The translations under genes and the position numbers were made by a program. This document shows, in pieces, positions 424-19,666 of a stretch of DNA of 21,751 bases. Source of the DNA: Nostoc sp. DedSLP01. GTDB lineage: Bacteria; Cyanobacteriota; Cyanobacteriia; Cyanobacteriales; Nostocaceae. Within the stretch, counting starts at the first letter, position 1; every line of letters begins with the position of its first letter. Location of the stretch: contig JAVRCJ020000070.1 in NCBI GenBank assembly GCA_034530875.2, positions 1-21,751 of the forward strand, given 5' to 3'. Below the pieces are notes generated by a model. It was not told where the DNA came from. It was given only the letters and a program-made list of their open reading frames with translations, and searched no databases.

Positions 424-1743
424 CTACAAAAAAGTTAAAGCTTGACCGCGCACTTGCGTATTTACCCGCCCTTTATCGTAAACAATCTGACCGCCGACAA
501 TAGTCGTTACAGGCCAACCGGTCAGGTTCCAGCCTTCAAAAGGACTCCAACCGCATTTGGTTAACAGTTCTTCGCGTCGGACTGGACGGTATGTGTCTAA
601 ATCTACAAGCACTAAATCGGCATCGTAACCAGGTGCGATCGCTCCTTTATTCGGAATACCATAAGCTACGGCTACAGCTTTGGACATCCAATTCACAACT
701 TGGGCAAGGGTACACTTTCCCTGCATGGCCGCAGTTAACATCAAAGGTAGGGAAGTTTCCACCCCAGGCATTCCCGATGGCGTATTGGGATATTCTTGTG
801 CTTTTTCCTCTAAGGTGTGGGGTGCGTGATCTGTGGCGATAAAATCGATGACGCCATCGCGCAAAGCTTGCCACAAAACTTCATTATCGTGGGGCGATCG
901 CAAAGGTGGATTCATCTGTGCTAAAGTACCAATCTGTTGGTAGGCGCTGGTATTCAACAATAAATGCTGTGGCGTTACCTCTGCTGTAACCCAACTCGGT
1001 TTTTCCTGACGCAGTAACTCTGCTTCGTCGGCTGTTGATAGATGCAGAATATGTAGCCGACGTTGATATTTTTTAGAAAGTTTTAATGCCAGTTGTGTTG
1101 CCAACAAAGCAGCTTCATTGTCTTGAATTTGGGAATGAACGGCTACATCGTGAATATTGGCAAATTCTTGGCGTCTTTGGTTGATTCTGGCTTGATCTTC
1201 GGCATGAACGGCAATCAATCTGTCGCCTTTAGCAAATATAGCCTCCAGCGCTGTTTCGCCGTCAACCAGCAATTGACCATGCATCGACCCCATGAAAATT
1301 TTAATCCCTGGTGTAGGCTTGGCTAGAAGCAAATCGGGGAGATTCTCTGGTGTTGCCCCAATAAAAAAGCCATAATTAACCACACATTTTTGCGAGGCAC
1401 GTTTTAGCTTGTCGTCTAAAGCTTCCTGTGTTGTAGTCAAGGGGCGGGTATTGGGCATTTCCAAAAAAGAAGTCACTCCTCCTTTGGCGCAGGCACAACT
1501 GGCAGTGAATAAATCTTCTTTGTGTTCTAGTCCCGGTTCGCGGAAATGTACCTGCGGATCGATGACTCCTGGCAACAAAGTTAACCCTTGTGCGTCAATT
1601 TCTGTGGCTGCGGCTGTTTGGGAGATTTCTGGCGCAATTTCGACTATTTGGCCATCGCGCGTCAACACATCAGCGATCGTTAGCTCGCTATTGGGTAGGA
1701 TAATCTGAGCCTGGCGAATCAGTAAAATTTCTGGAGATGACAT
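424..1743 (-). CDS. pyrC: Dihydroorotase (amidohydrolase superfamily, long type)
   Basis: 439 aa with PGVIDPQVHFREPG, GGVT..EMPNT.P, HAED, H.LHLST, EVTPQHL, MNPPLR, ATDHAPH, GMPGVET and KCGWSPFEG motifs. Confidence 0.88.
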   Translation of the reverse strand: MSSPEILLIRQAQIILPNSELTIADVLTRDGQIVEIAPEISQTAAATEIDAQGLTLLPGVIDPQVHFREPGLEHKEDLFTASCACAKGGVTSFLEMPNTRPLTTTQEALDDKLKRASQKCVVNYGFFIGATPENLPDLLLAKPTPGIKIFMGSMHGQLLVDGETALEAIFAKGDRLIAVHAEDQARINQRRQEFANIHDVAVHSQIQDNEAALLATQLALKLSKKYQRRLHILHLSTADEAELLRQEKPSWVTAEVTPQHLLLNTSAYQQIGTLAQMNPPLRSPHDNEVLWQALRDGVIDFIATDHAPHTLEEKAQEYPNTPSGMPGVETSLPLMLTAAMQGKCTLAQVVNWMSKAVAVAYGIPNKGAIAPGYDADLVLVDLDTYRPVRREELLTKCGWSPFEGWNLTGWPVTTIVGGQIVYDKGRVNTQVRGQALTFL

Positions 1744-2059: not shown

Positions 2060-2713
2060 ATGCAAAATCAAGTGTCTGATAACAACTCTAGTCAACAACC
2101 TGATAATTCCTGGATCGCAGAGCTAGGTAGAACAATTGTATTAAGCATTGTTTTAGCTCTGGGAATTCGTACCTTTGTTGCTGAAGCACGCTGGATTCCT
2201 TCTGGCTCGATGGAACCAACTCTGCATGGTACGCCAAACCAATGGGAGGCAGATAAAATCATTGTCGATAAATTGAAGTATAAATTTGCCAACCCCCAAC
2301 GCGGAGATATTATCGTATTTTCCCCTACTTTAGAGTTACAAAAAGAACAATACCAAGACGCTTTTATTAAACGTGTAATTGGCTTACCTGGAGAAAAAGT
2401 ACAACTCAAGGATGGCAAAGTTTATATCAATAACAAACCCCTGCCAGAAAGCAATTATCTCAGTTCTGGGCAGACTACAGCTATTGATGTTTGCAAAGAT
2501 GCTCCCCAGCCGCGCTTTTTAGAAAAACCCCAAACCATACCAGTCGACTCCTATTTAGTATTAGGTGACAATCGTAACAGTAGCTACGACAGCCGTTGTT
2601 GGGGTGTTGTCCCCCGCCAGAATATTATTGGTCGTGCTGTATTTCGGTTCTGGCCGCTCAATCACATTGGTGGAATTGATAAAACACCGCTGTATCCACA
2701 ACCAACTCCATAA
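2060..2713 (+). CDS. lepB: Signal peptidase I
   Basis: One N-terminal TM helix, IPSGSMEPTL (catalytic Ser50), RGDIIVF, FIKRVIGLPGE (catalytic Lys), LGDNRNSSYDSRCWG. Confidence 0.96.
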   Translation: MQNQVSDNNSSQQPDNSWIAELGRTIVLSIVLALGIRTFVAEARWIPSGSMEPTLHGTPNQWEADKIIVDKLKYKFANPQRGDIIVFSPTLELQKEQYQDAFIKRVIGLPGEKVQLKDGKVYINNKPLPESNYLSSGQTTAIDVCKDAPQPRFLEKPQTIPVDSYLVLGDNRNSSYDSRCWGVVPRQNIIGRAVFRFWPLNHIGGIDKTPLYPQPTP

Positions 2714-2714
2714 A

Positions 2715-2766
2715 GGTCGTTAGTTATTAGTCATTGGTCATTTGTTACTGCTAACAAAAGACAAAG
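2715..2766. repeat. Short heptamer tandem repeats (STRR2-like, TTGGTCA/TTAGTCA) with an inverted arm
   Basis: GGTCGT-TAGTTAT-TAGTCAT-TGGTCAT-TTGTTAC followed by the complementary TAACAAA/GACAAA, directly after the lepB stop codon. Confidence 0.65.
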
Positions 2767-2856
2767 TGCAAGGTCTGTAACAACATCCCGCAAGCTGCGG
2801 AGGTTTGGGAGCATCAGACGCCACTAAGCTCTCAGCTACCAGACCCATCCAACGCA

Positions 2857-3507
2857 GTGAACCAACTTTATAAGACAGGACAAACCCAAAGAGAATATGA
2901 TATGCCCAGTATCAAACTGAAGAAGATTATAGAGGCTAGTGTAATACTAGTCTTCTGGACTCTTGGTGTGTATATCATTTTCTTTACTGAAAGACGCTGG
3001 ATTCCTTCTGGTGCGATGGAACCAACTCTGCATGGTACGCCAAACCAGTGGGAGGCAGACAAAATTGTTATTGATAAATTGAAGTATAAATTTTCTCCAC
3101 CAGACCGCGGAGATATTGTGGTTTTTTGGCCTACAGAAGAGCTACAAAAAGAACAATATCAAGATGCTTTTATTAAACGTGTAATCGGCTTACCTGGAGA
3201 AAAAGTAGAACTCAAAAATGGCAAAGTTAGCATCAACAATAAACCTCTCCCAGAAGAAAATTATCTAAGTTCTCAGCAGAGTACAGCTATTGATGTTTGC
3301 TTATCAACTTCGCGGCCGCCTTTCTTGGCGAAACCTCAAACCATACCAGCAAATTCGTATTTAGTACTAGGTGATAACCGTAACAGTAGCTACGATAGCC
3401 GCTGCTGGGGTGTTGTTCCCCGCCAGAATATTGTCGGTCGCGCTGTATTTCGTTTCTGGCCTCTCAACCACATTGGTGGAATTGATAAATCACCCCTGTA
3501 TCCATAA
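2857..3507 (+). CDS. lepB: Signal peptidase I paralogue with the catalytic Ser replaced by Ala (start may be the ATG at 2902 rather than the GTG at 2857)
   Basis: The core is nearly identical to the upstream gene (EPTLHGTPNQWEADKI, FIKRVIGLPGE, LGDNRNSSYDSRCWG) but reads IPSGAMEPTL. The N-terminus and TM segment are different. Confidence 0.9.
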   Translation: MNQLYKTGQTQREYDMPSIKLKKIIEASVILVFWTLGVYIIFFTERRWIPSGAMEPTLHGTPNQWEADKIVIDKLKYKFSPPDRGDIVVFWPTEELQKEQYQDAFIKRVIGLPGEKVELKNGKVSINNKPLPEENYLSSQQSTAIDVCLSTSRPPFLAKPQTIPANSYLVLGDNRNSSYDSRCWGVVPRQNIVGRAVFRFWPLNHIGGIDKSPLYP

Positions 3508-4029
3508 AAGCCTAAGAAAAGCCCTTAAGTTTTCCCTTTTAATCGAAAAGTATTGCCCTACGCCGTTATTTTGGCCTTATTTCTCAATATCTTTGCCAAT
3601 TATCGTCAAGCAACTTTACCAGAATAGTTTGTTGCATGGTCTTTTAAGAAATTTACAAAAATTAATAAAGCTAGAGCTTTTTATATGCAAAAATGAATAT
3701 TTCGCTAAAATCTAAAATATAAACTAAATTTTTTTTGATTTTTAAATTTGCAGTGTATATTTACATGAAAAATTAAAAATTGTTATAGCCACGATTTAAT
3801 TTTTTTTACAACTCCAAAGCTTTTAATAGAAGAAAATTAAGGCATTATAAAGTCAAAATTAAATATAGGATTGGGTGCTAATGGCAACCTGAATTTGAGA
3901 ATGGCATACTGTAACCGATTAGTTAAATTTGTGTTTATACATTGCCAGATAAAACAGAGCAAATTAAGGTGTAATTATCAAACCTGAAAATTTATATATT
4001 GGAGGAACTCAGCCACGTATGCAAGTATA

Positions 4030-4120
4030 TAAGTAGGTAGACAGAATTAAATGTAAAATGCTTATCTTTAGAAACTAGATACAATAAGTCTTTTTCATTC
4101 AGCCATCTGTCTTCTACTTA
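4030..4120. mobile_element. 91-bp MITE-like element with imperfect terminal inverted repeats and TA ends
   Basis: TAAGTAGGTAGACAGA (4030-4045) pairs with TCTGTCTTCTACTTA (4106-4120). The TAAGTAG...CTACTTA ends resemble a common Nostocales intergenic element. Confidence 0.55.
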
Positions 4121-4264
4121 AAATTAAAATTTACTGTTTTTTATATTACACGTATAAAATATGTCATAAGGTGAAACTACTATTCCACCGTAGTTATCCC
4201 GGAATAAAATGTAGTTAATATGGCATGAATACCCCTAATAAATCCTGGGGAAGATTAAAAAACA

Positions 4265-7200
4265 ATGTTATCCAAACTCCAGCCGATCGCATCTTTAAAT
4301 CGCTTAGTTGGCAAAGTGTATGCCCAGATGCCTCTAAGATATATTCTAATTGTGCCCTTCATATTACAAATTTGTGGGGCAGTAGGGCTTGTGGGCTATC
4401 TTTCATATCAAAACGGCCAAAAAGCAGTAAAAGAGCTTGCTGCTCAATTAGAAAATGAAATTTGCGATCGCATAGAACAACATCTCGATAATTATTTAAC
4501 AACTCCCAAGCAAATTAATAAAATTAATTTAGATGCAATCGACTTAAATTTGCTTCCTCTTTCTGATTTTGAAGTCACGGGAAATTACTTTTGGAAACAA
4601 ATGCGAGTTTTCGATATTGGCTACAGCAACTTTGCCAATACCAAAGGTGAATTTATCGGTGTTGAACGTCTCGATGATGGCAAACTTTTAATTAATGAAG
4701 TTACCAAAAAGCAAGGTATAGGAAAGCTTCACGTTTACACTACAAACAACCAAGGAAATCGCGAGTTTTTACAGGCAATCAAAGAATACGATCCTCGCGA
4801 AGAAGCATGGTATACAGATGCCGTCAAGGCGGGTAAACCAGTTTGGAGTCAAATTTATCAATGGGAAGATAAACCAGAAATTTTATCTATATCTTCGAGC
4901 TATCCGGTTTACGATCGCAATCGCCAACTTGTTGGAGTGATTGGTGTCGATTTAATTTTGTCACAACTGGGGAATTTTTTATCGCAGTTAAAGTTTAGAG
5001 ATTCGGGTAAAACATTTATATTAGAGCGTTCAGGATTAATAGTAGCTTCTTCTAGTGGCTTGCCATATAGTATCGCTAACGGTCAAGCCAAACGTTTATC
5101 GGGATTAGATAGCCAAGATCCTGTAATTCGATTCACAACGCAAGATTTAATCAAACGCTTTGGTAGTCTACAATCAATTGTGGGTAAAAAAGAGCTAAAT
5201 TTTACTGCCAATGGCGTAGATTATTTTGTGCAAGTAAAAAGTTGGCAGGATGATTTGGGATTGGATTGGCTAATTGTAGCAGTCATCCCAGAAGCTGAAT
5301 TTATGCAGCAAATTAACGAAAACTCTCGTACCACCATTATCCTGTGCATAGTTGCTTTTTTAGTTGCTACAGAAATTGGGATTTTGACTTCTCGGTGGGT
5401 AATTAAGCCGATTCTAGAATTAAACATCTCAGCCAAGAAAATTGCTGAAGGTAAATGGGAACATACAGCAGAAATTAATCGCTCTGATGAGTTGGGAGAA
5501 CTTGCCAAATCATTTGAAACAATGGCTCAGCAACTCGAAGCATCTTTTAGTGTTTTGGCAACAAAGAATGCCGAGATGCAAGTTTTAAATGAAGCGCTAT
5601 CTGAAAGTAAGAGTCGGCTGACTCAATTTTTAGAAGCGATGCCGGTAGGTGTATTTATTATAGATGCCGAAGGCAATCCTTACTACATAAATGAAATTGC
5701 TCAGGAAATTCTCGGTCAAGGAATAGTACCAGTGCCGTGCGAACAACTCTCAAAGGTATATCAAGCTTATCTTGCAGGTACAAATCAAATTTATCCTAGC
5801 GATCGCTTGCCGATTTTAAGAGCATTGCAAGGCGAAAGCCTTAGAATTGACGATATGGAAATTCGCCATCATCAAAAGAATATTCCCATTGAAGTTTTGG
5901 GAAAACCAATTTATGATGAATCGGGGAATTTGGCTTTTGCGATGGCTACATTTTTTGAGATTGAGCAACGCAAACAAGCAGAAAAGTTACTGGCAGAATA
6001 TAACCTCGTCTTAGAAGCTCAAGTCAAAAAACGTACAGACGAATTCCAGCAGCTGATTGAGCAATTACAAATCACCCAAGAACAACTGATTGAATCGCAA
6101 AAAATTGCCGCACATGAGAAACAAGTAGCCATCCGCGAAGCAGCACGCAGCGCCGCAGCCAATCTTGCCAAAAGCGAATTTCTCGCTAATATGAGCCACG
6201 AACTGCGTACCCCACTCAACGCGATTCTCGGTTTTACCCAAGTCATGAGTCGGGATTATTCGCTATCAGACGAACATCAAAAAAGTTTAGGAATAATTAA
6301 TCGTGCTGGCGAACATCTACTGAATTTAATTAATGACATTCTCGAAATGTCCAAAATTGAAGCTGGTAGAATCAGATTAAATCTCAGTAGCTTTGATTTA
6401 ATTCATTTGCTAAATAACTTAGAAGAAATGTTGCACTTACGTGCAGCATCGAAAAACTTAGAATTAGTATTTGAGTATCCACCAGACCTGCCTCAATACA
6501 TAGAAACTGACGAAAATAAACTGTCTCAAGTATTACTCAACCTATTGGGAAACGCCATTAAATTTACTGCTACTGGTACGGTAACATTACGGGTGAGGCT
6601 GGAGGCTGGAGAAAAAGATACGGAGACACAAAGACACGGAGACGCACTGATGCGAGGACACGGAGACACAATCGTATGGGGATGCTCAAAGATGGAGAGT
6701 TCTTTCACTGCCTCTCCCCATAACTACGTCAGTGCGTCTTCTTCATCTCCCAAACTTTTAATCTTCGAGGTAGAAGATACTGGTTGTGGTATTGCTCCAG
6801 AAGAAATTGATTTGCTGTTTGAGGCTTTTGAGCAAACCGAGGTCGGTAGAAAATCGCAACAAGGTACGGGACTAGGTTTGGCCATTAGTCGCAAATACGT
6901 ACAACTAATGGGAGGAGATATTACTGTCAGCAGTACTCCTGGTATAGGTAGTATATTTAGTTTTAATGTCCAGATTGCTCTGGCTTCTGCTAGAGAAATC
7001 CCGGCTAACCAAAATAAATACCAAACTCTGGCTTTAGCTGCCTGTGAAAAACCATGCCGCATTCTAGTGGTTGACGACTCCAAAGAAAGCCGTCTATTGC
7101 TAGTTAAGATTCTCACATCTATAGGTTTTGAAGTTCAAGAAGCTGCAAATGGTGTGGAAGCAATTGCCAATTGGCAATCCTGGCAACCACACTTAATTTT

Positions 7201-7891
7201 GATGGATATGCGAATGCCTGTTATGGACGGCTACGAAGCCACAAAAATCATTAAATCTGAAGATTTGGTGTATATGAAATCGGTCATGGAGCATAGAGAA
7301 AAAATTTTGTTAAGTGACGTTAACTCCCACAGTCCACCACTACTTACTAGTAACTTGAGTCCGAAGCCTTATACAACGGCAAGTTCCTCTCATTGCGACC
7401 CAAACTTCCTAACTGCCTTAGCTCCAGCTTGTGACTCGCCTACGATCGCCGAAGAACGCCCCCATCAGAGCACTATTATTATTGCCCTGACTGCTAGCGC
7501 TTTTGAGGAAGAACGCCAGCGAACTTTGTCAATTGGATGTGATGATTTTATTCGCAAGCCATTCACCCAGGAAGTATTATTAGAAAAACTGAGCGAACAT
7601 TTGGGTGTAAAGTATAACAGCCCAATACAAACCACAAATACAGCAGCTGTTGAGCAAACTACACAGATGTTTGCCAGCGTTGCTGAACTCCTGAGCCATT
7701 TATCACAAATGCCGCCTGAGTGGCTCCAACAGATACACTATGCTGCGGCCAGTTGTAGCGACGATCTGATTTTAGAGTTACTCAAGCAAATTCCAGCGGA
7801 TAAAAGTCAAATTTTCCACATTCTCAGGGATTTAGCGAATAACTATCAGTTTGAGAAAATCATGGAATTGACTAGAACAAAGATAGAATGA
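4265..7891 (+). CDS. Membrane-bound hybrid sensor histidine kinase (TM-dCache-TM-HAMP-PAS-HisKA-HATPase_c-REC)
   Basis: Two TM segments flank a Cache-like domain (YDPREEAWY). HAMP (DELGELAKSF), PAS, H-box SHELRTPLNAILGF, N-box NLLGNAIKFT, G1 DTGCGI, G2 GTGLGLAIS, and a receiver domain (VVDD...LMDMRMP...LTA...KPF). Confidence 0.95.
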   Translation: MLSKLQPIASLNRLVGKVYAQMPLRYILIVPFILQICGAVGLVGYLSYQNGQKAVKELAAQLENEICDRIEQHLDNYLTTPKQINKINLDAIDLNLLPLSDFEVTGNYFWKQMRVFDIGYSNFANTKGEFIGVERLDDGKLLINEVTKKQGIGKLHVYTTNNQGNREFLQAIKEYDPREEAWYTDAVKAGKPVWSQIYQWEDKPEILSISSSYPVYDRNRQLVGVIGVDLILSQLGNFLSQLKFRDSGKTFILERSGLIVASSSGLPYSIANGQAKRLSGLDSQDPVIRFTTQDLIKRFGSLQSIVGKKELNFTANGVDYFVQVKSWQDDLGLDWLIVAVIPEAEFMQQINENSRTTIILCIVAFLVATEIGILTSRWVIKPILELNISAKKIAEGKWEHTAEINRSDELGELAKSFETMAQQLEASFSVLATKNAEMQVLNEALSESKSRLTQFLEAMPVGVFIIDAEGNPYYINEIAQEILGQGIVPVPCEQLSKVYQAYLAGTNQIYPSDRLPILRALQGESLRIDDMEIRHHQKNIPIEVLGKPIYDESGNLAFAMATFFEIEQRKQAEKLLAEYNLVLEAQVKKRTDEFQQLIEQLQITQEQLIESQKIAAHEKQVAIREAARSAAANLAKSEFLANMSHELRTPLNAILGFTQVMSRDYSLSDEHQKSLGIINRAGEHLLNLINDILEMSKIEAGRIRLNLSSFDLIHLLNNLEEMLHLRAASKNLELVFEYPPDLPQYIETDENKLSQVLLNLLGNAIKFTATGTVTLRVRLEAGEKDTETQRHGDALMRGHGDTIVWGCSKMESSFTASPHNYVSASSSSPKLLIFEVEDTGCGIAPEEIDLLFEAFEQTEVGRKSQQGTGLGLAISRKYVQLMGGDITVSSTPGIGSIFSFNVQIALASAREIPANQNKYQTLALAACEKPCRILVVDDSKESRLLLVKILTSIGFEVQEAANGVEAIANWQSWQPHLILMDMRMPVMDGYEATKIIKSEDLVYMKSVMEHREKILLSDVNSHSPPLLTSNLSPKPYTTASSSHCDPNFLTALAPACDSPTIAEERPHQSTIIIALTASAFEEERQRTLSIGCDDFIRKPFTQEVLLEKLSEHLGVKYNSPIQTTNTAAVEQTTQMFASVAELLSHLSQMPPEWLQQIHYAAASCSDDLILELLKQIPADKSQIFHILRDLANNYQFEKIMELTRTKIE
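6610..6751. repeat. In-frame octamer-type (GACACGGA) repeat insertion with nested inverted arms in the kinase ATPase domain
   Basis: Repeated GACACGGA/GACACAAA/GACGCACT units. AGACGCACTGA (6640-6650) pairs with TCAGTGCGTCT (6729-6739), and TATGGGGA (6675-6682) pairs with TCCCCATA (6715-6722). Confidence 0.7.
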
Positions 7892-9723
7892 ATTACGATC
7901 ATTTAGACCCTTATAAAAAAGATATTTTGATCGTTGACGATATGGCAGATAACCTGCGGGTTTTATCTTCGATATTGACAAGGGAAGGGTACAACGTTCG
8001 TAAAGCCTTAAACTGGCAAATGGCACTGACAGCAACTCAAACAGTGTTGCCCGATCTGATATTGCTCGATATCATGATGCCAGAAGTAGATGGCTATGAA
8101 ATTTGCCAAACTTTTAAAGCTTGGGACTTAACAGCTGATATTCCAGTAATTTTTATTAGCGCTCTGGATGATGTTTTTGATAAAGTTAAAGCTTTTAGGG
8201 TAGGCGGTGTAGACTACATCACTAAACCTTTTGAATTTCAAGAAGTTTTAGTGCGGGTACAAAATCAACTGGCTTTGAGATCGGCACGATTAGAAATCTT
8301 AAAATTAAATGTCGAACTCGAACATCGAGTCAAACAACGTACTTGGGAGCTAGAAAATGCTCTGCAAAAACTCCATGAAGAAATCATTTCTCGCCAGAAA
8401 TTACAAAGTCAAATCCTAGATATAGCACTACATGATTCTCTAACTGGGTTGCCAAACCGAGTTTTGTTTATCAGGCAACTCAAAAACGCTTTAAATCGGG
8501 CTAAACAAGATCCTAATTATCAGTTTGCCGTACTTTTTTTAGATTGCGATCGCTTCAAAGTCATCAATGATTCCCTCGGTCATTTGGTAGGAGATGAATT
8601 ACTCATTGCCATCGCCCGTCGCTTGCAAACATGCCTGATACCGATTGATACTCTAGCCCGATTAGGCGGCGACGAATTTGGTATTCTTCTGGAAAATCTC
8701 ACAGATATCAATATTGCCATCCAAGTTGCCGAACGCATTCTGCAACAGCTATCACTCGCTTTTAAACTCTCAAGATACGAAGTATTTATGAATGCCAGTA
8801 TTGGTATTAGCTGGGGTAATAAAGATTACGATCGCCCAGAGTATTTACTGCGGGATGCTGATACGGCAATGTATCGTGCCAAGGCTCAAGGAAGAGCAAA
8901 ATATCACGTTTTCGACCCAGCAATGCATCAGGAAGCCATTCAACTTTTAGAATTAGAAAATGATTTGCGCAGGGCTGTTGAAAGGCAAGAATTCCTCGTT
9001 TATTATCAGCCAATTATTTCTTTAACTACAGGCAAAATTTCTGGATTTGAAGCATTAGTACGCTGGCAACATCCGACCCGCGGCTTGGTTTCTCCTATAG
9101 ATTTTATTCCTGTAGCAGAAGAAACAGGTTTGATTAATGCCATTAACATCTGGGTATTACAGTCGGCTTGCCACCAACTAAGCATCTGGCAACATTATCC
9201 AGTCACGTCAGAGCCTTTAAGTATTAGTGTAAATTTGAGTGCCAGATTATTTTCACAGCCCAATTTCGTAGATCAAATAGACCGCATAATTCACGAACAT
9301 CAAATAAATCCCGAATATTTACAATTAGAAATTACAGAAAGCGTAATTATGGAAAATACTAATGCCATCAAAATAATTCTCGAAGAGTTAAAACAACGCA
9401 AAATTAAATTGATCATGGATGATTTTGGGACGGGATATTCGTCTTTAAGTTATCTTCACAGCTTTCCTTTAGATGCGCTCAAAATAGACAAATCATTTGT
9501 CAAACGGATGCAAGACAATCAAGAGAATATGGGGTTAGTTCCAGCAATGATCGGTATTGCTAATTCAATGGGAATGAGCGCGATCGCCGAAGGTGTTGAA
9601 ACAGAGGAACAGTTAGCCCAACTGAGAAATTTAAACTGTGATTTCGCTCAAGGATATCTCTTCTCTAAACCCATAGAAGGCGAATTAGTTATGAAGCTAC
9701 TTGCTGCAACACCCCAATGGTAA
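7888..9723 (+). CDS. Response regulator with diguanylate cyclase and phosphodiesterase domains (REC-GGDEF-EAL)
   Basis: REC (IVDD, LLDIMMP, KPF), HDSLTGLPNR, RLGGDEF, GFEALVRW, DDFGTGYSSLSYL, AEGVE. ATGA overlap with the upstream kinase stop codon. Confidence 0.96.
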   Translation: MNYDHLDPYKKDILIVDDMADNLRVLSSILTREGYNVRKALNWQMALTATQTVLPDLILLDIMMPEVDGYEICQTFKAWDLTADIPVIFISALDDVFDKVKAFRVGGVDYITKPFEFQEVLVRVQNQLALRSARLEILKLNVELEHRVKQRTWELENALQKLHEEIISRQKLQSQILDIALHDSLTGLPNRVLFIRQLKNALNRAKQDPNYQFAVLFLDCDRFKVINDSLGHLVGDELLIAIARRLQTCLIPIDTLARLGGDEFGILLENLTDINIAIQVAERILQQLSLAFKLSRYEVFMNASIGISWGNKDYDRPEYLLRDADTAMYRAKAQGRAKYHVFDPAMHQEAIQLLELENDLRRAVERQEFLVYYQPIISLTTGKISGFEALVRWQHPTRGLVSPIDFIPVAEETGLINAINIWVLQSACHQLSIWQHYPVTSEPLSISVNLSARLFSQPNFVDQIDRIIHEHQINPEYLQLEITESVIMENTNAIKIILEELKQRKIKLIMDDFGTGYSSLSYLHSFPLDALKIDKSFVKRMQDNQENMGLVPAMIGIANSMGMSAIAEGVETEEQLAQLRNLNCDFAQGYLFSKPIEGELVMKLLAATPQW

Positions 9724-9991
9724 GCACGAAATAACACCTGAAAAAAACTTGACAATTGGGGCTTGGTTAGATTATTTGTGTATTCTTTATATTATACTGC
9801 TGTCATCCAGCTTTTATTTTTGTAAAAACCTTAACTGATTAATAACTTTTTTCGGATAAAAATTTTCAAAGCGCTCTGTTAGTTAAACTATAAATACAAA
9901 GATTTTGGCAAAATTTAGCAGAATTGCCAGGGTGATTTCAAACCAGTATTTAGTATCCGCGATCGTTAATATACATATTTTTTCATAGATA

Positions 9992-11377
9992 ATGCATTTA
10001 AATCAAACTAACCATCATAAAAGAAATATTTTGGTGGTAGATGATACCCCAGATAATTTGCGGCTTTTATCAGCAATGTTAACTGCGCAAGGTTTTGAAG
10101 TTCGCAAAGCGTTAAATGGCAAAATGGCACTGACTGCATGTCAAATGGTTTTGCCAGATGTGATTCTGCTGGATATTAATATGCCGGGTATGGATGGCTA
10201 TGAAGTCTGCCAACAACTCAAAGCAGACGATAAAACTTGCGAAATTCCAGTAATTTTTATTAGCGCCCTCGATGATGTTGTAGATAAGGCAAAAGCTTTT
10301 GATGTTGGCGGCGTAGATTATATTGCCAAACCTTTTCATGGGGCAGAGGTTGTGTTACGAATTGAAAATCAGATTAATTTACGTTTGCTACAAGTAAACC
10401 TTCAAGAAAAAAATATTTTACTCCAACAGGCACTTGACGACTTAAAAGCCGTCCAAGTTCAACAAATTCAAAACGAAAAAATGGTGGCTTTGGGGCAGTT
10501 AGTAGCTGGAATTGCCCATGAAATTAATAACCCGATCAGTTTTATTTATGGGAATCTCCAATATGCTGGGCGATACGTGCAAGACCTAGCAAATATGATT
10601 GAGACTTATCAACAAGAATATCCCCAACCGACACCAAAAATTCAGCAAACAGCTAAAGATATAGACTTGAATTTTGTGATTCAAGATTTGCAAAATCTTA
10701 TAGATGCAATGTATAGAGGTTCTAATCGCATTCGGGAGATAGTACTAGCATTACAAAACTTTTCTCGACACGATGAATCTGAGATCAAGCGCGTAAATAT
10801 CCATGAAGGCATCGATAACACTTTAGTCATGTTACAGCATCGACTCAAGGAAACAGCAGACCGTCCAGCAATTTTTGTAGTTAAAAATTATGGCAATTTG
10901 CCTCGAGTTTCTTGTTATGTCAGCGAACTCAATCAAGTATTTATGCATTTATTGAATAATGCAATTGATGCTTTAGAAAAGGGAGTGGGGAGTGGGGAAT
11001 GGGGAGATGGGGAGATGGGGAGGTGGGGGAGTGTGGGAAGTGTGGGGGGAAAGATTTCTTCCCCATCCTTCCATACCCCAATACCCAATGCCCCATGCCC
11101 CATACCCAAAATAGAGATTTACACGCAACTGACAAACTCTAATACAGTCAAAATTGCGATCGCCGATAATGGCATTGGGATACAAGAGTCATTAAAACCG
11201 CGTTTGTTTGACCCATTTTTTACCACAAAAACTGTGGGCAAAGGTAGTGGATTAGGATTGTCAATTAGCTATCAAATTATCGTGCAAAAACACCGAGGTA
11301 AAATTACCTGCAACTCATCTGTTGGCAAAGGAGCAGAATTTGCGATCGAAATTCCCATAGAACCATCTGAGCGTTAA
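9992..11377 (+). CDS. Hybrid response regulator / histidine kinase (REC-HisKA-HATPase_c)
   Basis: REC (VVDD, LLDINMP, KPF), LVAGIAHEINNP H-box, NNAIDA, DNGIGI, FDPFFTTK, GSGLGLSIS. Confidence 0.95.
   Translation: MHLNQTNHHKRNILVVDDTPDNLRLLSAMLTAQGFEVRKALNGKMALTACQMVLPDVILLDINMPGMDGYEVCQQLKADDKTCEIPVIFISALDDVVDKAKAFDVGGVDYIAKPFHGAEVVLRIENQINLRLLQVNLQEKNILLQQALDDLKAVQVQQIQNEKMVALGQLVAGIAHEINNPISFIYGNLQYAGRYVQDLANMIETYQQEYPQPTPKIQQTAKDIDLNFVIQDLQNLIDAMYRGSNRIREIVLALQNFSRHDESEIKRVNIHEGIDNTLVMLQHRLKETADRPAIFVVKNYGNLPRVSCYVSELNQVFMHLLNNAIDALEKGVGSGEWGDGEMGRWGSVGSVGGKISSPSFHTPIPNAPCPIPKIEIYTQLTNSNTVKIAIADNGIGIQESLKPRLFDPFFTTKTVGKGSGLGLSISYQIIVQKHRGKITCNSSVGKGAEFAIEIPIEPSER
10981..11109. repeat. In-frame STRR1-like tandem repeats (G-rich arm followed by a C-rich arm)
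   Basis: GGGGAGT/GGGGAAT/GGGGAGAT units, then CCCCAAT/CCCCATG units; encodes GVGSGEWGDGEMGRWGSVGSVGG...PIPNAPCPIP. Confidence 0.85.
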
Positions 11378-11404
11378 TTAAGAAGAATTTAGAATCTAGA
11401 ACTA

Positions 11405-11740
11405 TCAGCCAACAGCGAACTCGGTAAATTTTCGTTTGAAGGGAGAGTGAAAAGCTAAGACAATATCATTTTTAGGTACACCATGATTGGTAAGCTCATC
11501 GGCAATACCTCCTTCAGTACCATCATGCTGAATCCAAACTTTTTCGTTTTTAATATCTAGATGCAAAACACAGCCATATACACGACGTTTATTTGACCAA
11601 CCTACATGAACAAGTTGATATCTATCGTGTTCTCGATCGAAAATTACTTCGGCTTCGACTTCTTCGTTACTAGATTTAATTTGGCTATAAGCTTCTAACA
11701 ACTCTTGAATGATTTTACGATATTGTTCTACTTTTGCCAT
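11405..11740 (-). CDS. xisI: XisI family protein
   Basis: 111 aa with FDREHDRYQL..VGW, GC.LHLDIK..KVWIQHDGTE.GIA.EL...GVPK.DIVLAFH.P..R..T.FAV signature. Confidence 0.93.
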   Translation of the reverse strand: MAKVEQYRKIIQELLEAYSQIKSSNEEVEAEVIFDREHDRYQLVHVGWSNKRRVYGCVLHLDIKNEKVWIQHDGTEGGIADELTNHGVPKNDIVLAFHSPFKRKFTEFAVG

Positions 11741-12144
11741 TTGACAATCGTCTCCTGTTCTGGATCGAAAATAATCAGTCGAACTTGATAACGTTGGATT
11801 AACAAGCGCGGCAGTTCTAAAGTAAAAAAGGAACGATAAGTATCAAAAGGAACTGCTAAATATAGAAGTCTCTCTGGTTGCTCTTCTTCAAGTGCTAGCT
11901 GGTATTTGAGAAACTGTCCCAAAGCAGTACTAAATTCTGTTGTAGCAGATGGGCTAACAAAACTTTTAATTTCAACAGCAATTTTTTCTTCGTTTCGTTC
12001 CGCTGCTATAATTTTCTCGGCACCAAGGTCTATATACATATCCAATCCGCCAAAACGTAGGAATAGAGGATCGTTGGTAATCAACCAACCATCTTTCTCT
12101 AAAGCGCGTTTTACTGCATAGTGGAAAATGTCCTTCGCCGACAT
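11728..12144 (-). CDS. xisH: XisH family protein (PD-(D/E)xK nuclease-like fold)
   Basis: 138 aa with MSAKDIFH.AVK.ALEKDGW.IT.DP, IDLGAEK, IAVEIKSF, ALGQF..Y, R.LYLAVP. Overlaps xisI by 13 nt. Confidence 0.94.
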   Translation of the reverse strand: MSAKDIFHYAVKRALEKDGWLITNDPLFLRFGGLDMYIDLGAEKIIAAERNEEKIAVEIKSFVSPSATTEFSTALGQFLKYQLALEEEQPERLLYLAVPFDTYRSFFTLELPRLLIQRYQVRLIIFDPEQETIVKWQK

Positions 12145-12216
12145 AAATTACTATTGAGCTTTTTAATTTCGAGCGTGTCTTCAGTTTAACTGTTGACTAA
12201 ACCTTATACTTGCTAA

Positions 12217-13875
12217 TCATTGCAACAGCTTCAGAGGGAGTTTGACAGTGAAATTCGTCCAGCCTTGAGAACTATTAACTTCAACTGTCCCTTGGAGATA
12301 TTCTACTAACTTTTTCACTAATGATAAACCTAATCCTGTGTTGCCATATTGTCGGCGAACGCTTTGAATAATTGGATCTACCCCATCGAATATTTGAGAT
12401 TTTTCTTGTGTCTTACTGCAATCGATGCGGTAAAATGGCTCAAATATTCGAGATGTTTCTTGTATGGGGATTTCCACTCCGGAATTACTAATCGTAATTT
12501 GACAGTAGGGAAATTGAAAATTATTTATTCCACCAGATTTTGCATCTTCATTGACAAGCTCGGCATTTACTGTAATTTGTTCGTTGATAGGAGTATATTT
12601 GCAAGCATTGTTGAGTAACTCTGAGATAATTTCCGTTAGGCTACCTAAGTCTGAAACTAAAACTGGTAAATTAGGGGAAATCTTAACTTGCAATATCTGT
12701 TGCCGTTCTCGAATAAGCGCTTCAAAACCGTCAACTATATGAGGCAGCCAGTTTTGCAGTTCAATTGCAGTTAATTCCAATGGATATGTATCTGCATCAA
12801 TCATTCGCATGTACAGCAAATCGTCCACTAAATCTAACTCTTGTTCGCACTGGTCGCGGATGATATTTAAGTAACGAGTTACAGTATCGTATGTAAAACG
12901 TGCTTCGGAATTGAAAATCTCCTCCCGGTCTAAAATATTTTCAAGCACGTTAATTGCCATTTTAATGTTTGATAATGGCGTTCGCATTTCATGAGAAGTA
13001 GTTATTAAAAAATCTTCTTTCAATTTGTTCAATTTTTCAAGTTCTGCCACTTGAATTTCTAGTTGTTTAGTACGTTCGTTAGCAAGATTGCGTTCTTCAA
13101 TTAAGCGTCGTCGCGTGTCGTTACGAAAAACCAGTACAGCTCCTGTAATCGTGCCGCTATTATCTCTCAGAGGAGTAGCACTATCAGCTATAGGAATAGT
13201 CGTTCCATCTTTGCTAACGAGTAAGACGCCACTGCGAAGATAGATAATAGTTTGTTGTTCCAGGGCTGCGATAATTGGATTTTTTATCGGCAGTAAAGTT
13301 CGTTCGTCAACAAGTTGGAGAACTTCAGTTAATATTTTTTCCTTAGCTTCATCCCATTGCCAACCTGTCAGGCTTTCAGCTACCTGATTCATGTATTTAA
13401 TTTGTAATTCAGTATCTACTACAATTACCCCATCACCCATTCCTCGCAGCACAGAACTCAAAAATTGCTCGCGATTGTAGCGACTCAGAGCTGTTTCAAT
13501 GGCAACGTAAAGTTCTTGCTCTTTGATAGGTTTGAGGATATATCCAAAGGGGGATGTCAGGGCTGCTCGCTCCACAGTACTCTTATCAGAGTGACCAGTG
13601 ACGTAGATTACAGGAATTTGTAAATCCAGCCAAATTTGCTCTGCTGCCTGGATGCCGTCGATCTCCCCCCGTAATCTGATATCCATCAAAATCAAGTTTG
13701 GGCGCAACTGTGTTGCCTTTTCAATTGCTAATTCTGCGGAATCGGCAATATCTAAAACAGTGTATCCCAAAGACTCTAAGCTTTCTTGTAAGTTGATGGC
13801 AAGAATATATTCATCTTCAACAACAAGAACTCTAACTGTCTCCTTTGCATTACTGCTTGGTGCGATGCCGACCAT
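12217..13875 (-). CDS. Hybrid REC-PAS-HisKA-HATPase_c histidine kinase
   Basis: REC (VVEDE, LMDIRL, ILKP), PAS (GMGDGVIVVD...MNQVAESLTGW), SHEMRTPL, ELLNNACKYT, TGLGLSLV. Starts 3 nt after the upstream gene. Confidence 0.93.
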   Translation of the reverse strand: MVGIAPSSNAKETVRVLVVEDEYILAINLQESLESLGYTVLDIADSAELAIEKATQLRPNLILMDIRLRGEIDGIQAAEQIWLDLQIPVIYVTGHSDKSTVERAALTSPFGYILKPIKEQELYVAIETALSRYNREQFLSSVLRGMGDGVIVVDTELQIKYMNQVAESLTGWQWDEAKEKILTEVLQLVDERTLLPIKNPIIAALEQQTIIYLRSGVLLVSKDGTTIPIADSATPLRDNSGTITGAVLVFRNDTRRRLIEERNLANERTKQLEIQVAELEKLNKLKEDFLITTSHEMRTPLSNIKMAINVLENILDREEIFNSEARFTYDTVTRYLNIIRDQCEQELDLVDDLLYMRMIDADTYPLELTAIELQNWLPHIVDGFEALIRERQQILQVKISPNLPVLVSDLGSLTEIISELLNNACKYTPINEQITVNAELVNEDAKSGGINNFQFPYCQITISNSGVEIPIQETSRIFEPFYRIDCSKTQEKSQIFDGVDPIIQSVRRQYGNTGLGLSLVKKLVEYLQGTVEVNSSQGWTNFTVKLPLKLLQ

Positions 13876-13878
13876 AAT

Positions 13879-16800
13879 TTATGCCCCGTTTTTTGTCAAA
13901 GAAATTTTAAATTGCGTTCCCTGGTGAGAGTCAATTTCGAGCTTTCCTTTTAGCTGCTTGACTAAGCCCTGAACGAGGGTTATGCCTAGGGTTTTAACTT
14001 TTTTGGTATCAAAATTTTCAGGTAAACCTATACCATTATCTCGAATGAGGAGTATTAAAGTACGCTCTGATTCTTGATAAAACTTAACTTCGATTTCTCC
14101 TTCCTGATTACCAACAAAAGCGTATTTCAAAGCATTGGAAACCAGTTCGTTGATAATCAAGCCGCAAGGAATGGCGGTTTCGATATCGAGGCTAGCATTA
14201 TCAACTTGAATCTTGAGTTTAATTTGATTGGAACTGACCTTATAGGAATCAAATAAATGAGTTGTTAAATCTGGGATATATTGAGCGAAATCAATATCAG
14301 CTAGGTCTTCAGAACGATATAATTTTTCATGCACTAAAGCAATAGAAGCGATGCGGTTTTGGCTATCGCACAGAATTGCAGCTACCTGCGGATCTTGGGT
14401 GCGTCTGCACTGCATTTGCAGCAAACTGCTGACAATTCCTAAATTGTTCTTGACGCGATGATGAATTTCTTTAAGTAAGACTTCCTTTTCTTTGAGAGAT
14501 GCTTTGATTTTTTCCTCTGCTTGTTTATGCTCGGTAATATCTTGTTGGACGGCTACAAGGACGCTTCCATATTCAGGATGCTCAAAGACAGAACTAGTGG
14601 CACTACACCAGAAAGGAGTACCATCTTTCTTAAGATTATGAACTTCATAAGTAGCTTCACCGTGTTGGAAAATAGCAGCCCTAATCGCCTGATTAATATC
14701 TTCAGGTGTATTGTTTTGATCGCCGTAATTGACAATTGATACATGCTGACCGATTAATTCCCCAGAGTCATAGCCAAACATTTGCTCGAATTTGGGATTG
14801 GCATAAACAATAATGCCATCGCTAGTTCTAATTAAGCAAATTCCCTCAGCGATGTTGCGGGTAATTACTGCTTGCAGTTCTAACATCTGTTGGGCACGTT
14901 TGCGATCGCTGATTTCTACAATTACAAAGCCAATGCCGATGGGTTGTTGGGTTTGAGAAGCAATCGGAAAGCAGGAAACTAACCACGTCCGCTTCACCCC
15001 GGGGTCTTTTGGAGTTTCGCCGCCGATTTCTAAATCCAAAACCGGTTCGCCTATTGTTAAAACATGTTGAAAAATCGGTTCGAGCTTTCGTGCCAAATCG
15101 GGGATAATTTCCCACACAGTCTTGCCAATATGCGCTGCTGCGGGAATACCATTCATTTGTGCTAATGCTTGATTCACCAATGTAAAATGCAAATGGCGAT
15201 CGAGAACGGTTAAACCAACAGGTGCGCTGCTGATGAAAGCATCTAATAACTGTTGCTGATGAGCCAATTCTCGCTCCAGAATTTTACGTTCTGTGATGTC
15301 AATTGCCACCCTACCTACTAACTTTTGTCCAGATAATCCCAGAATCGGAAACTTGTAAACCAAGAACTCACCAACGGTGCCGTCTGGGCGGGGAGCAACT
15401 TCTATGAACTCAATGACTTGATTGCTTTGTGCAACTGTGCGAATATGCTCAAAGTGCTGCTGAGCAATTTCAGTTGGGTAGAGGTCAAATATCGATTGCT
15501 CGATGGCGCGATCGGGTTGTAATTTAAATGTACGCAGGTATACTTGGTTTAAATAAAGCACACGCCCATCCGTATCGGTAATCCAAGCTAGCACCGGACT
15601 ATTGTTCATAAATGCCTGGAACCGAGCTTCACTTTCTCGCAAGGCTGCTTCTGCTTGCTTAGTAGCGCTGACATCAATAATCACACCCAGCATTCGTACA
15701 GCTTCGCCTGTTTCGTTGTAAACGCCGCGCCCTTTGCCAGTGAGCCAGCGAATGCTGCCATCGGGGTAAATTACTCGATATTCAGCTTCAAAATTAGTAC
15801 GTTCTGCTAAAGCTTTAAAGACAGCCTGTTCAACTCGGTCAACATCTTCTGGATGCACGCGATCGCGCCATAGTTGATAGTTGGCTGTTGATGTTTCTGG
15901 TTCCAACCCTAGCAAGCGAAAATGATTGTCGTTCCAAATTACGTCGCCTGTTAGAATATTCCAGTCCCAAATACCAATATGGTTAAATTCCAAAGTCAGC
16001 CTGAGTTGTTCTTCACTCTTGGCTAAAGCTGCTTCGGCAAGTTTGCGTAAGCGCAGCTCGTCGTAGACATCGCTAATATCCCCTAAAGAACCAATCAGTC
16101 GCACTGGATTTCCTTGCTCGTCCCAGATACCTTTTGCCCGCGATCGCACCCAGCGATAGCTGCCATCCTTGCATCGCAGACGATACTCGACGTTATAATC
16201 TGCAACTTGCCTACTCAAATAAGCTTCTTGCGCAGCCATGACTCTGGCATAGTCGTCACGGTGAATGCGAACATTCCACTCATCATCGCTACTACTAATT
16301 TCGTTGGGTTCGTATCCCAAAATTGTGCACCAACGATCCGACCGGAAGGTTTGATTGGTAGAGATGTCCCAATCCCAAATTGCTTCATTAGTACCGACGA
16401 TCGCTAATTGCCAACGTTCTTCACTTTGGCGCAAGGTTTCTTCCGCTGTTTGGCGATCGCGCAGTGCAATTTCCCGTTCGGTGACATCTTGGGCAGTGCC
16501 ATAAAGCCGGATTACTTTTCCATCTGCGTTAAATTCTGCATATCCAATGCCCTCGAAGTAGCGATTAGAACCATCTGGCTGGGGTACACGCAAAATTTCT
16601 TTGTAGGATTCACCTGTGGCGATCGCTCGCTCAACGGCTTGGTGCAACTTTTGACGGTCTTCAGGGTGATACAATTGCAGATTTTCTTCATAGTTCGGTT
16701 CAAGAAGCGCCGGGTCTCGATTGAAGAGGTCGAAAAGGCCTTTAGACCAAGTAATTTTGCCACTGACAAGTTCAAACTCCCAATTACCAAGGCGAGCAAC

Positions 16801-18228
16801 TCGCTGGGATTCTTCTAGCAGAGCTTGACTTTTGCGCAGGGTTTCTTCAGTGCGCTTGAGGTCGGTGACATCTACCACCAATCCATCCCAAGCCACGCGT
16901 CCATCCTGTAACTTGCGTGGTGTGGAACGAAAATGGAACCATTTGAGTTGACCGCTGGGAGTTTGGATTCGCAGCTGAATATCAAACACAGATAAATTAC
17001 GCATCGACTCTTCAACAGCGGCCTGTAAACGGGGAATGTCCTCTGGGAGAAACTGGCGATAAAGCAGAGATGAATCTCTGAGTGCATCTTCTACTTTGAC
17101 TTCCATCAGTTTTTCAATTCCGCCACTCAGGTAGGAAAAGCGATCGCTGCCATCTAGTTGTCGGATTACCTGATAAACTGCGCCATTGGGCAAATTATCT
17201 CCAATCAAGTACAACATGACTTCACGCTCGTGTAAGGCGAGTTCTGTTTGTTTGCGTTCGGTGATGTCTCGCCCTTCTGGAATTAACAAAACGACTTCAC
17301 CCGTTTCATTTCGCAGCGGACGCAGCGAAAAATCGATTGTTGCGACTCGGTTATTTGCCCCAATCACATTAACTTCATAGCGGACAAACTCTCCTTTAAC
17401 TGCCAGGGCGATGGCTTGTTTTAATTGTTGTTGAGTTTGTGGTGAAATCGTCCACCAGTGTGCTTCCCAAAAAGGACGATTGATAACATCTTCTAGCTTC
17501 AGTCCGCCAAAACTGAGCGCAGTTTGGTTGGCTTCTAGCAAAATGCCATCTGGCGTTAATAAACCTGTGAATTGGAATGTGTTATTGAAAATAGCACGGA
17601 ATCGTCGCTCGCTTTCTTGTAGTGCAGCAGTGCGTTCCTGTACTTTAGCTTCTAAGTGAGTGTTGAGGGTTTGCAGATTGTGGTAAAGTTCGGCCTGTTG
17701 GATGGCGATCGCTAGTTGCACTGTCAGTCGATCGAGTAACTCTACCTCAAATTTCTGCCATTGCCGCCAAGCAGAACATTGATGCACGATAAACAGTCCC
17801 CACAGATTCAGTGCTTGCGTTTCTTGGTTATTGAGCAAAATCGGCACAACTAAACTGGCCTTCACCTGAAACCGTTCCAATAATTGAATATGGCAGTGAC
17901 TTAAACCCGCTTCGTAGATGTTCGCCGCTGTCCAAATTTTTCCTTGACTGTATTCTTCTGTTTGAGCTTGCTGCAAACAAGTATCTTCAATATCCAATTC
18001 TGAGATTGCTATCCATTCAGGTAAAACCGACTCTGCTACAACACCACCCTTCATCTGATTTGTTAACTGATATACTAATGCCCTATCCGCCTTGAGTAGC
18101 TGGCGGACTTCTTGAGTGCTAGTTGTAAGGATGTCTTGCAGTTTTAAAGATTGGCGGATATGGAGAGCGATCGCTCCTACTAGCCGTTGTTGTTCTTGCT
18201 GCTGCTCGAGCTGTTGTATTAGTTGCAT
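13879..18228 (-). CDS. Soluble cyanobacteriochrome-type GAF + 8 PAS/PAC + HisKA_2/HATPase sensor kinase
   Basis: The GAF domain has DTCL (aa 82-85) and CH (aa 112-113) motifs in the context IYEAGLSHCHIQLLERFQVKA.LVVPI. Eight PAS modules each end in a D(I/V)(T/S)-type motif. LLKEIHHRVKNNL H-box, NELVSNALKYAF, DNGIGLP, LGITLV. Confidence 0.92.
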   Translation of the reverse strand: MQLIQQLEQQQEQQRLVGAIALHIRQSLKLQDILTTSTQEVRQLLKADRALVYQLTNQMKGGVVAESVLPEWIAISELDIEDTCLQQAQTEEYSQGKIWTAANIYEAGLSHCHIQLLERFQVKASLVVPILLNNQETQALNLWGLFIVHQCSAWRQWQKFEVELLDRLTVQLAIAIQQAELYHNLQTLNTHLEAKVQERTAALQESERRFRAIFNNTFQFTGLLTPDGILLEANQTALSFGGLKLEDVINRPFWEAHWWTISPQTQQQLKQAIALAVKGEFVRYEVNVIGANNRVATIDFSLRPLRNETGEVVLLIPEGRDITERKQTELALHEREVMLYLIGDNLPNGAVYQVIRQLDGSDRFSYLSGGIEKLMEVKVEDALRDSSLLYRQFLPEDIPRLQAAVEESMRNLSVFDIQLRIQTPSGQLKWFHFRSTPRKLQDGRVAWDGLVVDVTDLKRTEETLRKSQALLEESQRVARLGNWEFELVSGKITWSKGLFDLFNRDPALLEPNYEENLQLYHPEDRQKLHQAVERAIATGESYKEILRVPQPDGSNRYFEGIGYAEFNADGKVIRLYGTAQDVTEREIALRDRQTAEETLRQSEERWQLAIVGTNEAIWDWDISTNQTFRSDRWCTILGYEPNEISSSDDEWNVRIHRDDYARVMAAQEAYLSRQVADYNVEYRLRCKDGSYRWVRSRAKGIWDEQGNPVRLIGSLGDISDVYDELRLRKLAEAALAKSEEQLRLTLEFNHIGIWDWNILTGDVIWNDNHFRLLGLEPETSTANYQLWRDRVHPEDVDRVEQAVFKALAERTNFEAEYRVIYPDGSIRWLTGKGRGVYNETGEAVRMLGVIIDVSATKQAEAALRESEARFQAFMNNSPVLAWITDTDGRVLYLNQVYLRTFKLQPDRAIEQSIFDLYPTEIAQQHFEHIRTVAQSNQVIEFIEVAPRPDGTVGEFLVYKFPILGLSGQKLVGRVAIDITERKILERELAHQQQLLDAFISSAPVGLTVLDRHLHFTLVNQALAQMNGIPAAAHIGKTVWEIIPDLARKLEPIFQHVLTIGEPVLDLEIGGETPKDPGVKRTWLVSCFPIASQTQQPIGIGFVIVEISDRKRAQQMLELQAVITRNIAEGICLIRTSDGIIVYANPKFEQMFGYDSGELIGQHVSIVNYGDQNNTPEDINQAIRAAIFQHGEATYEVHNLKKDGTPFWCSATSSVFEHPEYGSVLVAVQQDITEHKQAEEKIKASLKEKEVLLKEIHHRVKNNLGIVSSLLQMQCRRTQDPQVAAILCDSQNRIASIALVHEKLYRSEDLADIDFAQYIPDLTTHLFDSYKVSSNQIKLKIQVDNASLDIETAIPCGLIINELVSNALKYAFVGNQEGEIEVKFYQESERTLILLIRDNGIGLPENFDTKKVKTLGITLVQGLVKQLKGKLEIDSHQGTQFKISLTKNGA
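16045..16073 (-). mobile_element. 21-nt small dispersed repeat (SDR5-like) inserted in frame into a HIP1 site
   Basis: The minus strand reads GCGAT-GTCTACGACGAGCTGCGCTTA-CGC. Removing 16048-16068 restores GCGATCGC and the normal PAS ending DISDRK. Confidence 0.85.
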
Positions 18229-19590: not shown

Positions 19591-19666
19591 TTACTCGTCC
19601 CGGACAAGTTCCTTTCATCGGGTTCTCCTGCACGCAAATGTCCTCGCTATCTCTCCAATAGAAAGC

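Follow-up and report, generated by a model that had tools for sequence, protein, structure and literature searches.

The lepB locus and its second signal peptidase gene

The window, i.e. the whole stretch of 21,751 nucleotides that was analysed, carries two signal peptidase I genes in tandem after pyrC, gene A and then gene B. The relevant features are the following:

424..1743, minus strand: pyrC (dihydroorotase; NCBIfam PRK07575, 832 bits, above the cut-off), divergent from and upstream of gene A
2060..2713, plus strand: gene A, intact signal peptidase I of 217 aa (TIGR02227, 156 bits; Ser50, Lys104)
2207..2209, plus strand: nucleophile codon TCG of gene A (Ser50), read from the sequence
2714..2901, plus strand: A-B spacer of 188 bases
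2902..3507, plus strand: gene B, predicted pseudo-signal peptidase I of 201 aa (TIGR02227, 139 bits, cut-off 47; Pfam S26, PF10502)
2911..2985, plus strand: basic N-terminus specific to B, with a single membrane helix (helix 4-28 in the model)
2995..3012, plus strand: RWIPSG, start of the homology between A and B (2189-2206 in gene A)
3013..3015, plus strand: GCG codon of gene B (Ala38), replacing the nucleophile Ser
3175..3177, plus strand: AAA codon of the general base Lys92, retained in gene B
3370..3402, plus strand: GDN...DSR box, retained in gene B (G157-D158-N159, D165)

Going by its motifs, we take gene A to be of the LepB2 (housekeeping) type. Its neighbour pyrC flanks all of the 23 tandem pairs that were recovered (see below) and thus provides a locus marker in relatives. 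The genome contains a third signal peptidase I gene, which is intact and lies on contig C9, and tandem gene B is the sole Ser-less S26 type present. A short repeat directly 3' of gene A (2716-2755) matches many sites in this and related genomes. The promoter scan returned 5 promoter-like sites where 8.1 were expected, none of them above chance, and a weak sigma-70-like match in the spacer (2872-2901) is likewise within chance.

From the RWIPSG motif onwards, over 170 codons, A and B share 84.1% of their DNA and 84.7% of their protein sequence (33 codon differences are silent and 26 change the residue), and the N-terminus of B, which is common to B copies only, is unalignable with gene A DNA. 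The first-pass annotation had reported the TCG codon at 2207-2209 in gene A and the GCG codon at 3013-3015 in gene B, within an open frame that keeps the Lys, GDN and DSR boxes, and all of this is found in the sequence. It had placed gene B at 2857..3507: the frame is indeed open from GTG 2857 to 3507, but the start is most likely ATG 2902 (MPSIK..., 201 aa), because an ATG is found at that offset in 19 of 20 aligned B copies and the upstream frame is often interrupted by stops in relatives, which disfavours GTG 2857.

Both profile and fold place gene B in the signal peptidase I (S26) family. The structural model (pLDDT 89.7) has the signal peptidases I of E. coli and S. aureus as best structural matches (Foldseek against E. 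coli LepB, E 9e-11) and begins with a predicted membrane anchor (helix 4-28; best 19-residue hydropathy 2.2). In the family profile, Ala38 falls in the same column as the Ser of E. coli IPSGSMM (9nlo) and the Ala that was engineered into S. aureus SpsB S36A (4wvg, GEAMDPTL), and thus occupies the nucleophile position. Of what marks an active signal peptidase I, the nucleophile Ser is missing, and Lys, GDN and D(S/G)R are present. A derivation of the B N-terminus from the last helix of a multi-membrane family was considered and dropped (best match E 0.62, not significant). A prediction of an A/B complex gave a score of 0.00, which speaks neither for nor against a complex.

The Ala codon is not a sequencing error or a private allele. 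A contig of sequencing run X3 covers 2212-3043, and with it G3013, at a depth of ~200 with 0 differing letters, a support that is not independent in so far as this run may be the window's own source, and 21 other genomes carry Ala at the same position in the same tandem gene. In RNA run X18, from a relative that is 10-20% different, a contig extends from the end of A into B at a depth of 145, in a library that has contigs of up to 65 kb and may contain DNA, for which reason this contig does not count as evidence of expression; run X15 did not cover B.

In most relatives, with or without B, a gene of ~270 residues, presumably encoding a MOSC-type protein, follows 3' of lepB. It is missing here, where an AT-rich gap (3508-4264) is followed by a hybrid kinase. 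No linked client gene was found for B, the downstream neighbours being variable and of the same kinds in genomes with and without it. The remainder of the window contains a dense signalling cluster (4265-18228), encoding a dCache-HAMP hybrid kinase, an RR-GGDEF-EAL protein, an RR-kinase, an RR-PAS kinase and a GAF-multi-PAS kinase, with an xisH-xisI pair inside it (11405-12144; no recombinase seen alongside), and then ldpA (circadian input) followed by an AAA/R3H protein (18430-21397).

Distribution, gene conversion and selection

The search with B covered 389 genomes of the family, 127 of them in the genus. Three or more matches were obtained in 26 of the 127. Of the 25 that were examined (G018 was left out), 22 have the tandem arrangement next to pyrC, with B following A; in 2 others an Ala-type domain is fused to TPRs, and the last one encodes a lipoprotein-like protein of the Ala type. 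B is thus patchy, being missing from 105 of the 127 genus genomes. One genome of another genus (G160) also has the A-B pair, which brings the total to 23 pairs; the count outside the genus is a lower bound, as other genera were covered via pattern matches or fetched loci, so that B copies with a different codon could have escaped. The loose pattern search (W and S codes) supplied 70 loci, 58 of which contained no signal peptidase. The relatives carry the source names Nostoc and Desmonostoc, and in one case (L149) the pyrC-lepB-B locus is part of a 1.78-Mb record whose title says plasmid, possibly a mislabelled piece of chromosome.

Throughout the 23 pairs the nucleophile position is Ser in A, and in B it is Ala (22) or Asn (1) and never Ser. 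The Lys is kept in 22 of the 23 B copies and is Gln in one that is otherwise intact (G261), and 3 of the 23 are broken, by a frameshift (G020) or stops (G294 and G238). Among the best 120 database relatives of similar length, those of the A type all have the Ser (and the Lys; 107/107) and those of the B type all have Ala (13/13). A scan for the exact pattern, with one genome per species, recovered 26 loci, whose record titles all name heterocyst-forming cyanobacteria (tandem B in 17, the multi-membrane type in 8 and the TPR type in 1; overlapping with the set of 23 pairs). Directly behind lepB in G196 (L059) lies a second signal peptidase I gene that is Ser-intact and has a different N-terminus, which implies that tandem duplication at the lepB locus happened more than once.

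The first-pass annotation had anticipated that the PSGAM proteins would form a clade. This holds for the N-terminus, which is homologous in the B copies of both genera, but not for the catalytic domains: these branch at five separate positions of the tree, in each case close to A genes from their own lineage. For the 8 pairs that lie outside the main clade, the distance of B is 9.3% to its own A and 15.2% to foreign A; within the main clade the effect is slight (15.3% versus 15.7%). Tree and distances indicate that the domain of B is repeatedly overwritten from the neighbouring lepB, with the Ala codon spared every time: out of 163 codons, that of the nucleophile alone distinguishes A from B in every one of the 23 pairs. 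Either selection removes the tracts that restore Ser, or tracts rarely reach a codon so near the edge of the homology. The Ala codon lies only 18-24 bases inside it (18 in this genome), so that conversion may miss it for mechanical reasons. Immediately 5' of it, the Gly codon differs between A and B in 22 of the 23 pairs, and the codons further upstream are too invariant to show where tracts end. In this genome and in G014 the Ala codon equals the A codon at the second and third base, as if a tract had ended at the defining base, which a silent mutation explains equally well. The C-terminus is lengthened in 22 of the 23 tandem A genes and B-like in 28 of the 31 single-copy genes that were fetched, which fits either a collapse of the pair or the original duplication.

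Selection was evaluated in a clade of 15 genomes, this one among them, whose B copies form a monophyletic group (support 99). The omega values are 0.22 (B) and 0.07 (A), and a value of 1 is rejected for both (2ΔlnL 151 and 387, respectively; kappa fitted). Conversion from A to B could lower omega, and two extra tests were therefore performed: i) allele exclusion, in which only alleles never seen in A are counted; and ii) a within-genome comparison of A and B, for which a neutral B is expected to yield a dN/dS of ~0.5. The first is conservative, as it removes most silent sites, and gave 0.77 (p 0.39, with only 4 silent alleles), or 0.66 on a narrower set (p 0.054). The second is unbiased by conversion from A to B, because a tract resets silent and replacement sites together. 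Over the 93 codons that are invariant in 55 A genes, it gave a dN/dS of 0.054 for this genome (p 1.5e-6) and p<0.05 in 23 of the 23 pairs, which are kin and not independent; over all codons it gave 0.26 here (p 0.015), with values below the null in 23 of the 23 pairs and p<0.05 in 20, neutrality not being rejected in the other 3. The within-genome comparison rejects the possibility that the low omega of B is a by-product of conversion.

No stop or frameshift is found in B in the 15 genomes, which span a dS of ~0.3, where ~5-16 stop alleles are expected under neutrality. The N-terminus specific to B has an omega of 0.89, not different from 1, and its lack of stops is not significant (p 0.12); the core of its helix has 1 charged or Pro residue over 20 sequences versus 13 in a neutral simulation (p 0.005). 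Purifying selection has thus acted, in a relaxed form, on a B that carries Ala. The dN/dS below 1 beside lepB for which the first-pass annotation had proposed to test is thereby found, and its suggestion of a maintained pseudo-peptidase is substantiated by an Ala that is conserved across species and by purifying selection beyond the effect of conversion.

Possible role of the Ser-less copy

Pseudo-signal peptidases have been described in a few Gram-positive pathogens. In S. aureus, SpsA is an inactive type I signal peptidase paralogue that is encoded adjacent to spsB and affects phagosomal escape; as described there it misses both catalytic residues and is 31% identical to SpsB (PMC12414704). 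It is reported to be membrane anchored, dispensable and a suspected binder of peptides or partners (PMC12414704, PMC12445088). B resembles SpsA in being an inactive-type paralogue with a predicted anchor beside the active enzyme, and differs from it in having lost only the Ser, in being ~85% identical to A within the domain and refreshed by conversion, and in its patchy presence within its genus. SipA of S. pyogenes is described as keeping the peptide cleft while missing the dyad, as lacking peptidase activity and as needed for pilus polymerisation (PMC4049620). SipA/LepA structures (PDB 4n31 and 4k8w) match B by profile and fold; at the dyad positions SipA carries Asp/Gly, and its gene belongs to a pilus cluster that includes a dedicated client, whereas B keeps the Lys and has no linked client. 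B shares with both proteins a broken dyad (one of the two residues here, two of two in SpsA and SipA), and it is maintained by selection. The sequence from which the cleft is built is conserved in B.

The context of B is pyrC-lepB and not a staphylococcal or pilus cluster, and B does not qualify as an orthologue of either protein. It nests inside the Nostocaceae lepB clade (96, in a quick tree of a 111-row subset with the trait columns blanked, SpsA and SipA not being part of that tree), and its origin is therefore independent of that of SpsA. The closest likeness at the level of the residue is a laboratory mutant, SpsB S36A (PDB 4wvg), which has the identical change from Ser to Ala with Lys retained and is reported to fold normally (PMC4704075). 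The peptide complexes presented in that paper are of the Ser-restored enzyme, so that they do not demonstrate peptide binding by the Ala form (PMC4704075). Cyanobacteria are reported to have one LepB1 and one LepB2 each (PMC3210150), and B differs from this scheme as a third, Ser-less copy besides A and the gene on contig C9. A full-text literature search, of a scope that excluded subscription journals, MEROPS and supplements, retrieved no description of cyanobacterial Ser-less signal peptidases, and the databases label B-like Ser-less proteins plainly as signal peptidase I. The first-pass annotation had presented the pair as the best candidate for an undescribed system, which is overstated, since an inactive paralogue beside the active enzyme is the published arrangement of SpsA and SpsB (PMC12414704). 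The pseudo-signal peptidase as a kind is already known; the single-residue loss, the conversion pattern and the spread through cyanobacterial fusions set this variant apart.

The reading that we lean towards, and consider fairly probable, is that B is a functional but dispensable membrane-anchored pseudo-enzyme, i.e. a non-cutting peptide binder that modulates processing by LepB. B would have originated next to lepB, in tandem with it, before at least two Nostocaceae genera diverged. Its insertion into the membrane would rely on the basic N-terminus and helix that it carries itself, the domain facing the extracytoplasmic side. With the peptide groove, the oxyanion Ser and the Lys intact and the nucleophile gone, it would bind and not cut, the loss of activity being expected from the known mechanism; its ligands would be signal peptides, at their cleavage region, or extended peptides of a similar kind, and it may hold, delay or shield a subset of the preproteins that LepB otherwise processes. 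Recurrent conversion from lepB would keep the domain matched to the host enzyme while the Ala codon is never overwritten, possibly because Ala itself is selected. This binding role is suggested by the consistent pairing of a Ser-bearing A with a Ser-less B, the purifying selection, the conversion pattern, the helix that stays free of charges, the precedent of SpsA and SipA, and the loss of Ser in a related membrane family (see below). Weighing against it are the presence of B in only 22 of the 127 genomes, the 3 broken copies, the single loss of Lys, the allele exclusion in which neutrality stands, the 3 pairs in which it stands over all codons, the omega of the N-terminus, the position of the Ala near the homology edge and the lack of a linked client.

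Several of these points would also suit a B that is a long-lived inactive passenger, co-expressed with lepB, kept foldable on account of the cost of membrane protein misfolding, repaired by conversion and disappearing from one lineage after another, its Ala persisting through the position at the homology edge. The patchiness and the broken copies agree with this, as do the near-neutral N-terminus, the outcome of the conservative allele exclusion, the C-terminal ends (which fit a collapse of the pair by recombination) and the differing Gly codon, according to which tracts end 3' of both Gly and Ala. We nevertheless consider it unlikely in view of the omega of ~0.1 at core codons in the within-genome test, the stop alleles that are expected and do not occur, the sharing of B by two genera although direct repeats are easily deleted, and the recurrence of the same Ala state in other architectures.

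That B would protect LepB as a decoy, by sequestering signal peptidase inhibitors (arylomycin-like lipopeptides), strikes us as improbable. Gene A has Ala instead of Pro at the position of E. coli P84 in 23 of the 23 pairs, and loss of Pro at the equivalent position is reported to lower resistance in S. aureus (PMC12414704). The Lys is present in B, conversion keeps B similar to A, and a niche-dependent benefit would suit the patchy presence of B. However, an active second copy would bind the inhibitor too, which leaves the loss of Ser unexplained, and the same groove position is Arg in 12 of the 23 B copies, this genome included.

In E. coli LepB, the S90A variant is inactive and S88 forms the oxyanion hole. 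A weak or altered peptidase activity of B, for instance by means of the Ser two residues upstream (kept in 23 of the 23 B copies) and the retained Lys, to which the rarity with which the membrane family loses both serines (5 of 82 Lys-keeping members) could be joined, is for that reason given little credence, the same change being the standard catalytic mutant of SpsB (PMC4704075) and the Lys having become Gln in the otherwise intact copy of G261.

As a natural twin of an essential enzyme (~85% identical) that is predicted to be dead through one residue and is present or absent among close culturable relatives, B makes the role of pseudo-signal peptidases directly testable. The A/B pair also illustrates clearly how concerted evolution can leave a single catalytic codon untouched.

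Ser-less S26 domains in other cyanobacterial proteins

The survey was widened to longer relatives and to 50% representatives. The most prominent group is a membrane family of ~360 residues, in which an N-terminal membrane domain (KEPWLAVNLS; weak matches to TM2, DUF5683 and DUF6677) precedes the S26 domain, and whose source name is again signal peptidase I (rows P0121-P0240; L061, L067, L084, L163 and L168). Among its 97 members in 263 rows, the nucleophile position is Ala in 48, Ser in 34, Gly in 12, Asn in 2 and Thr in 1, so that 63 are Ser-less, and these states are scattered over the tree of the N-terminal domain (95 rows). Loss of the Lys occurs in 11 of the 34 members with Ser versus 4 of the 63 without (Fisher p 0.002, uncorrected for kinship), as though a single disabling change were enough; only 11 of the 97 retain the Lys together with both serines. 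Three members that combine Ser with a His could have another dyad and are putatively active.

In the blanked-column tree, the insert-bearing domains of the membrane and TPR types join the lepB clade (90), apart from the insert-less family members, a grouping that suggests that the domain was recruited or refreshed from the local lepB more than once. Among 301 genomes of the order, 13 of the 26 foreign pattern matches are Ala-type S26 genes; these are distributed over 10 other families and include two single-helix forms. The other 13 are no signal peptidases.

More tentatively, and with doubts prevailing, these findings might be taken to mean that the signal peptidase I domain has become, in cyanobacteria, a general non-cutting module for extracytoplasmic peptide binding that is kept dead by selection. 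It would be used alone on one helix (as in B), behind a TM2/DUF5683-like membrane domain or before TPR and CHAT domains, a position in which it could sense signal peptides or peptides of another kind. Refreshing from the host lepB would keep its specificity the same, conversion leaving out the Ser codon and a return of Ser often being accompanied by loss of the Lys or of the upstream Ser. Many cyanobacterial proteins that are named signal peptidase I and have no nucleophile are probably misannotated binders or sensors.

Further architectures include secreted Ala-type S26 domains with TPRs, some with a C-terminal CHAT (caspase-like) domain, which are candidate peptide sensors (P0184, P0375, L034, L035, L076 and L077), and Ser-less S26 domains that occur with a protein kinase, a pilin-like G/H domain or a lipoprotein-like leader (P0329, P0211, P0249 and L038).
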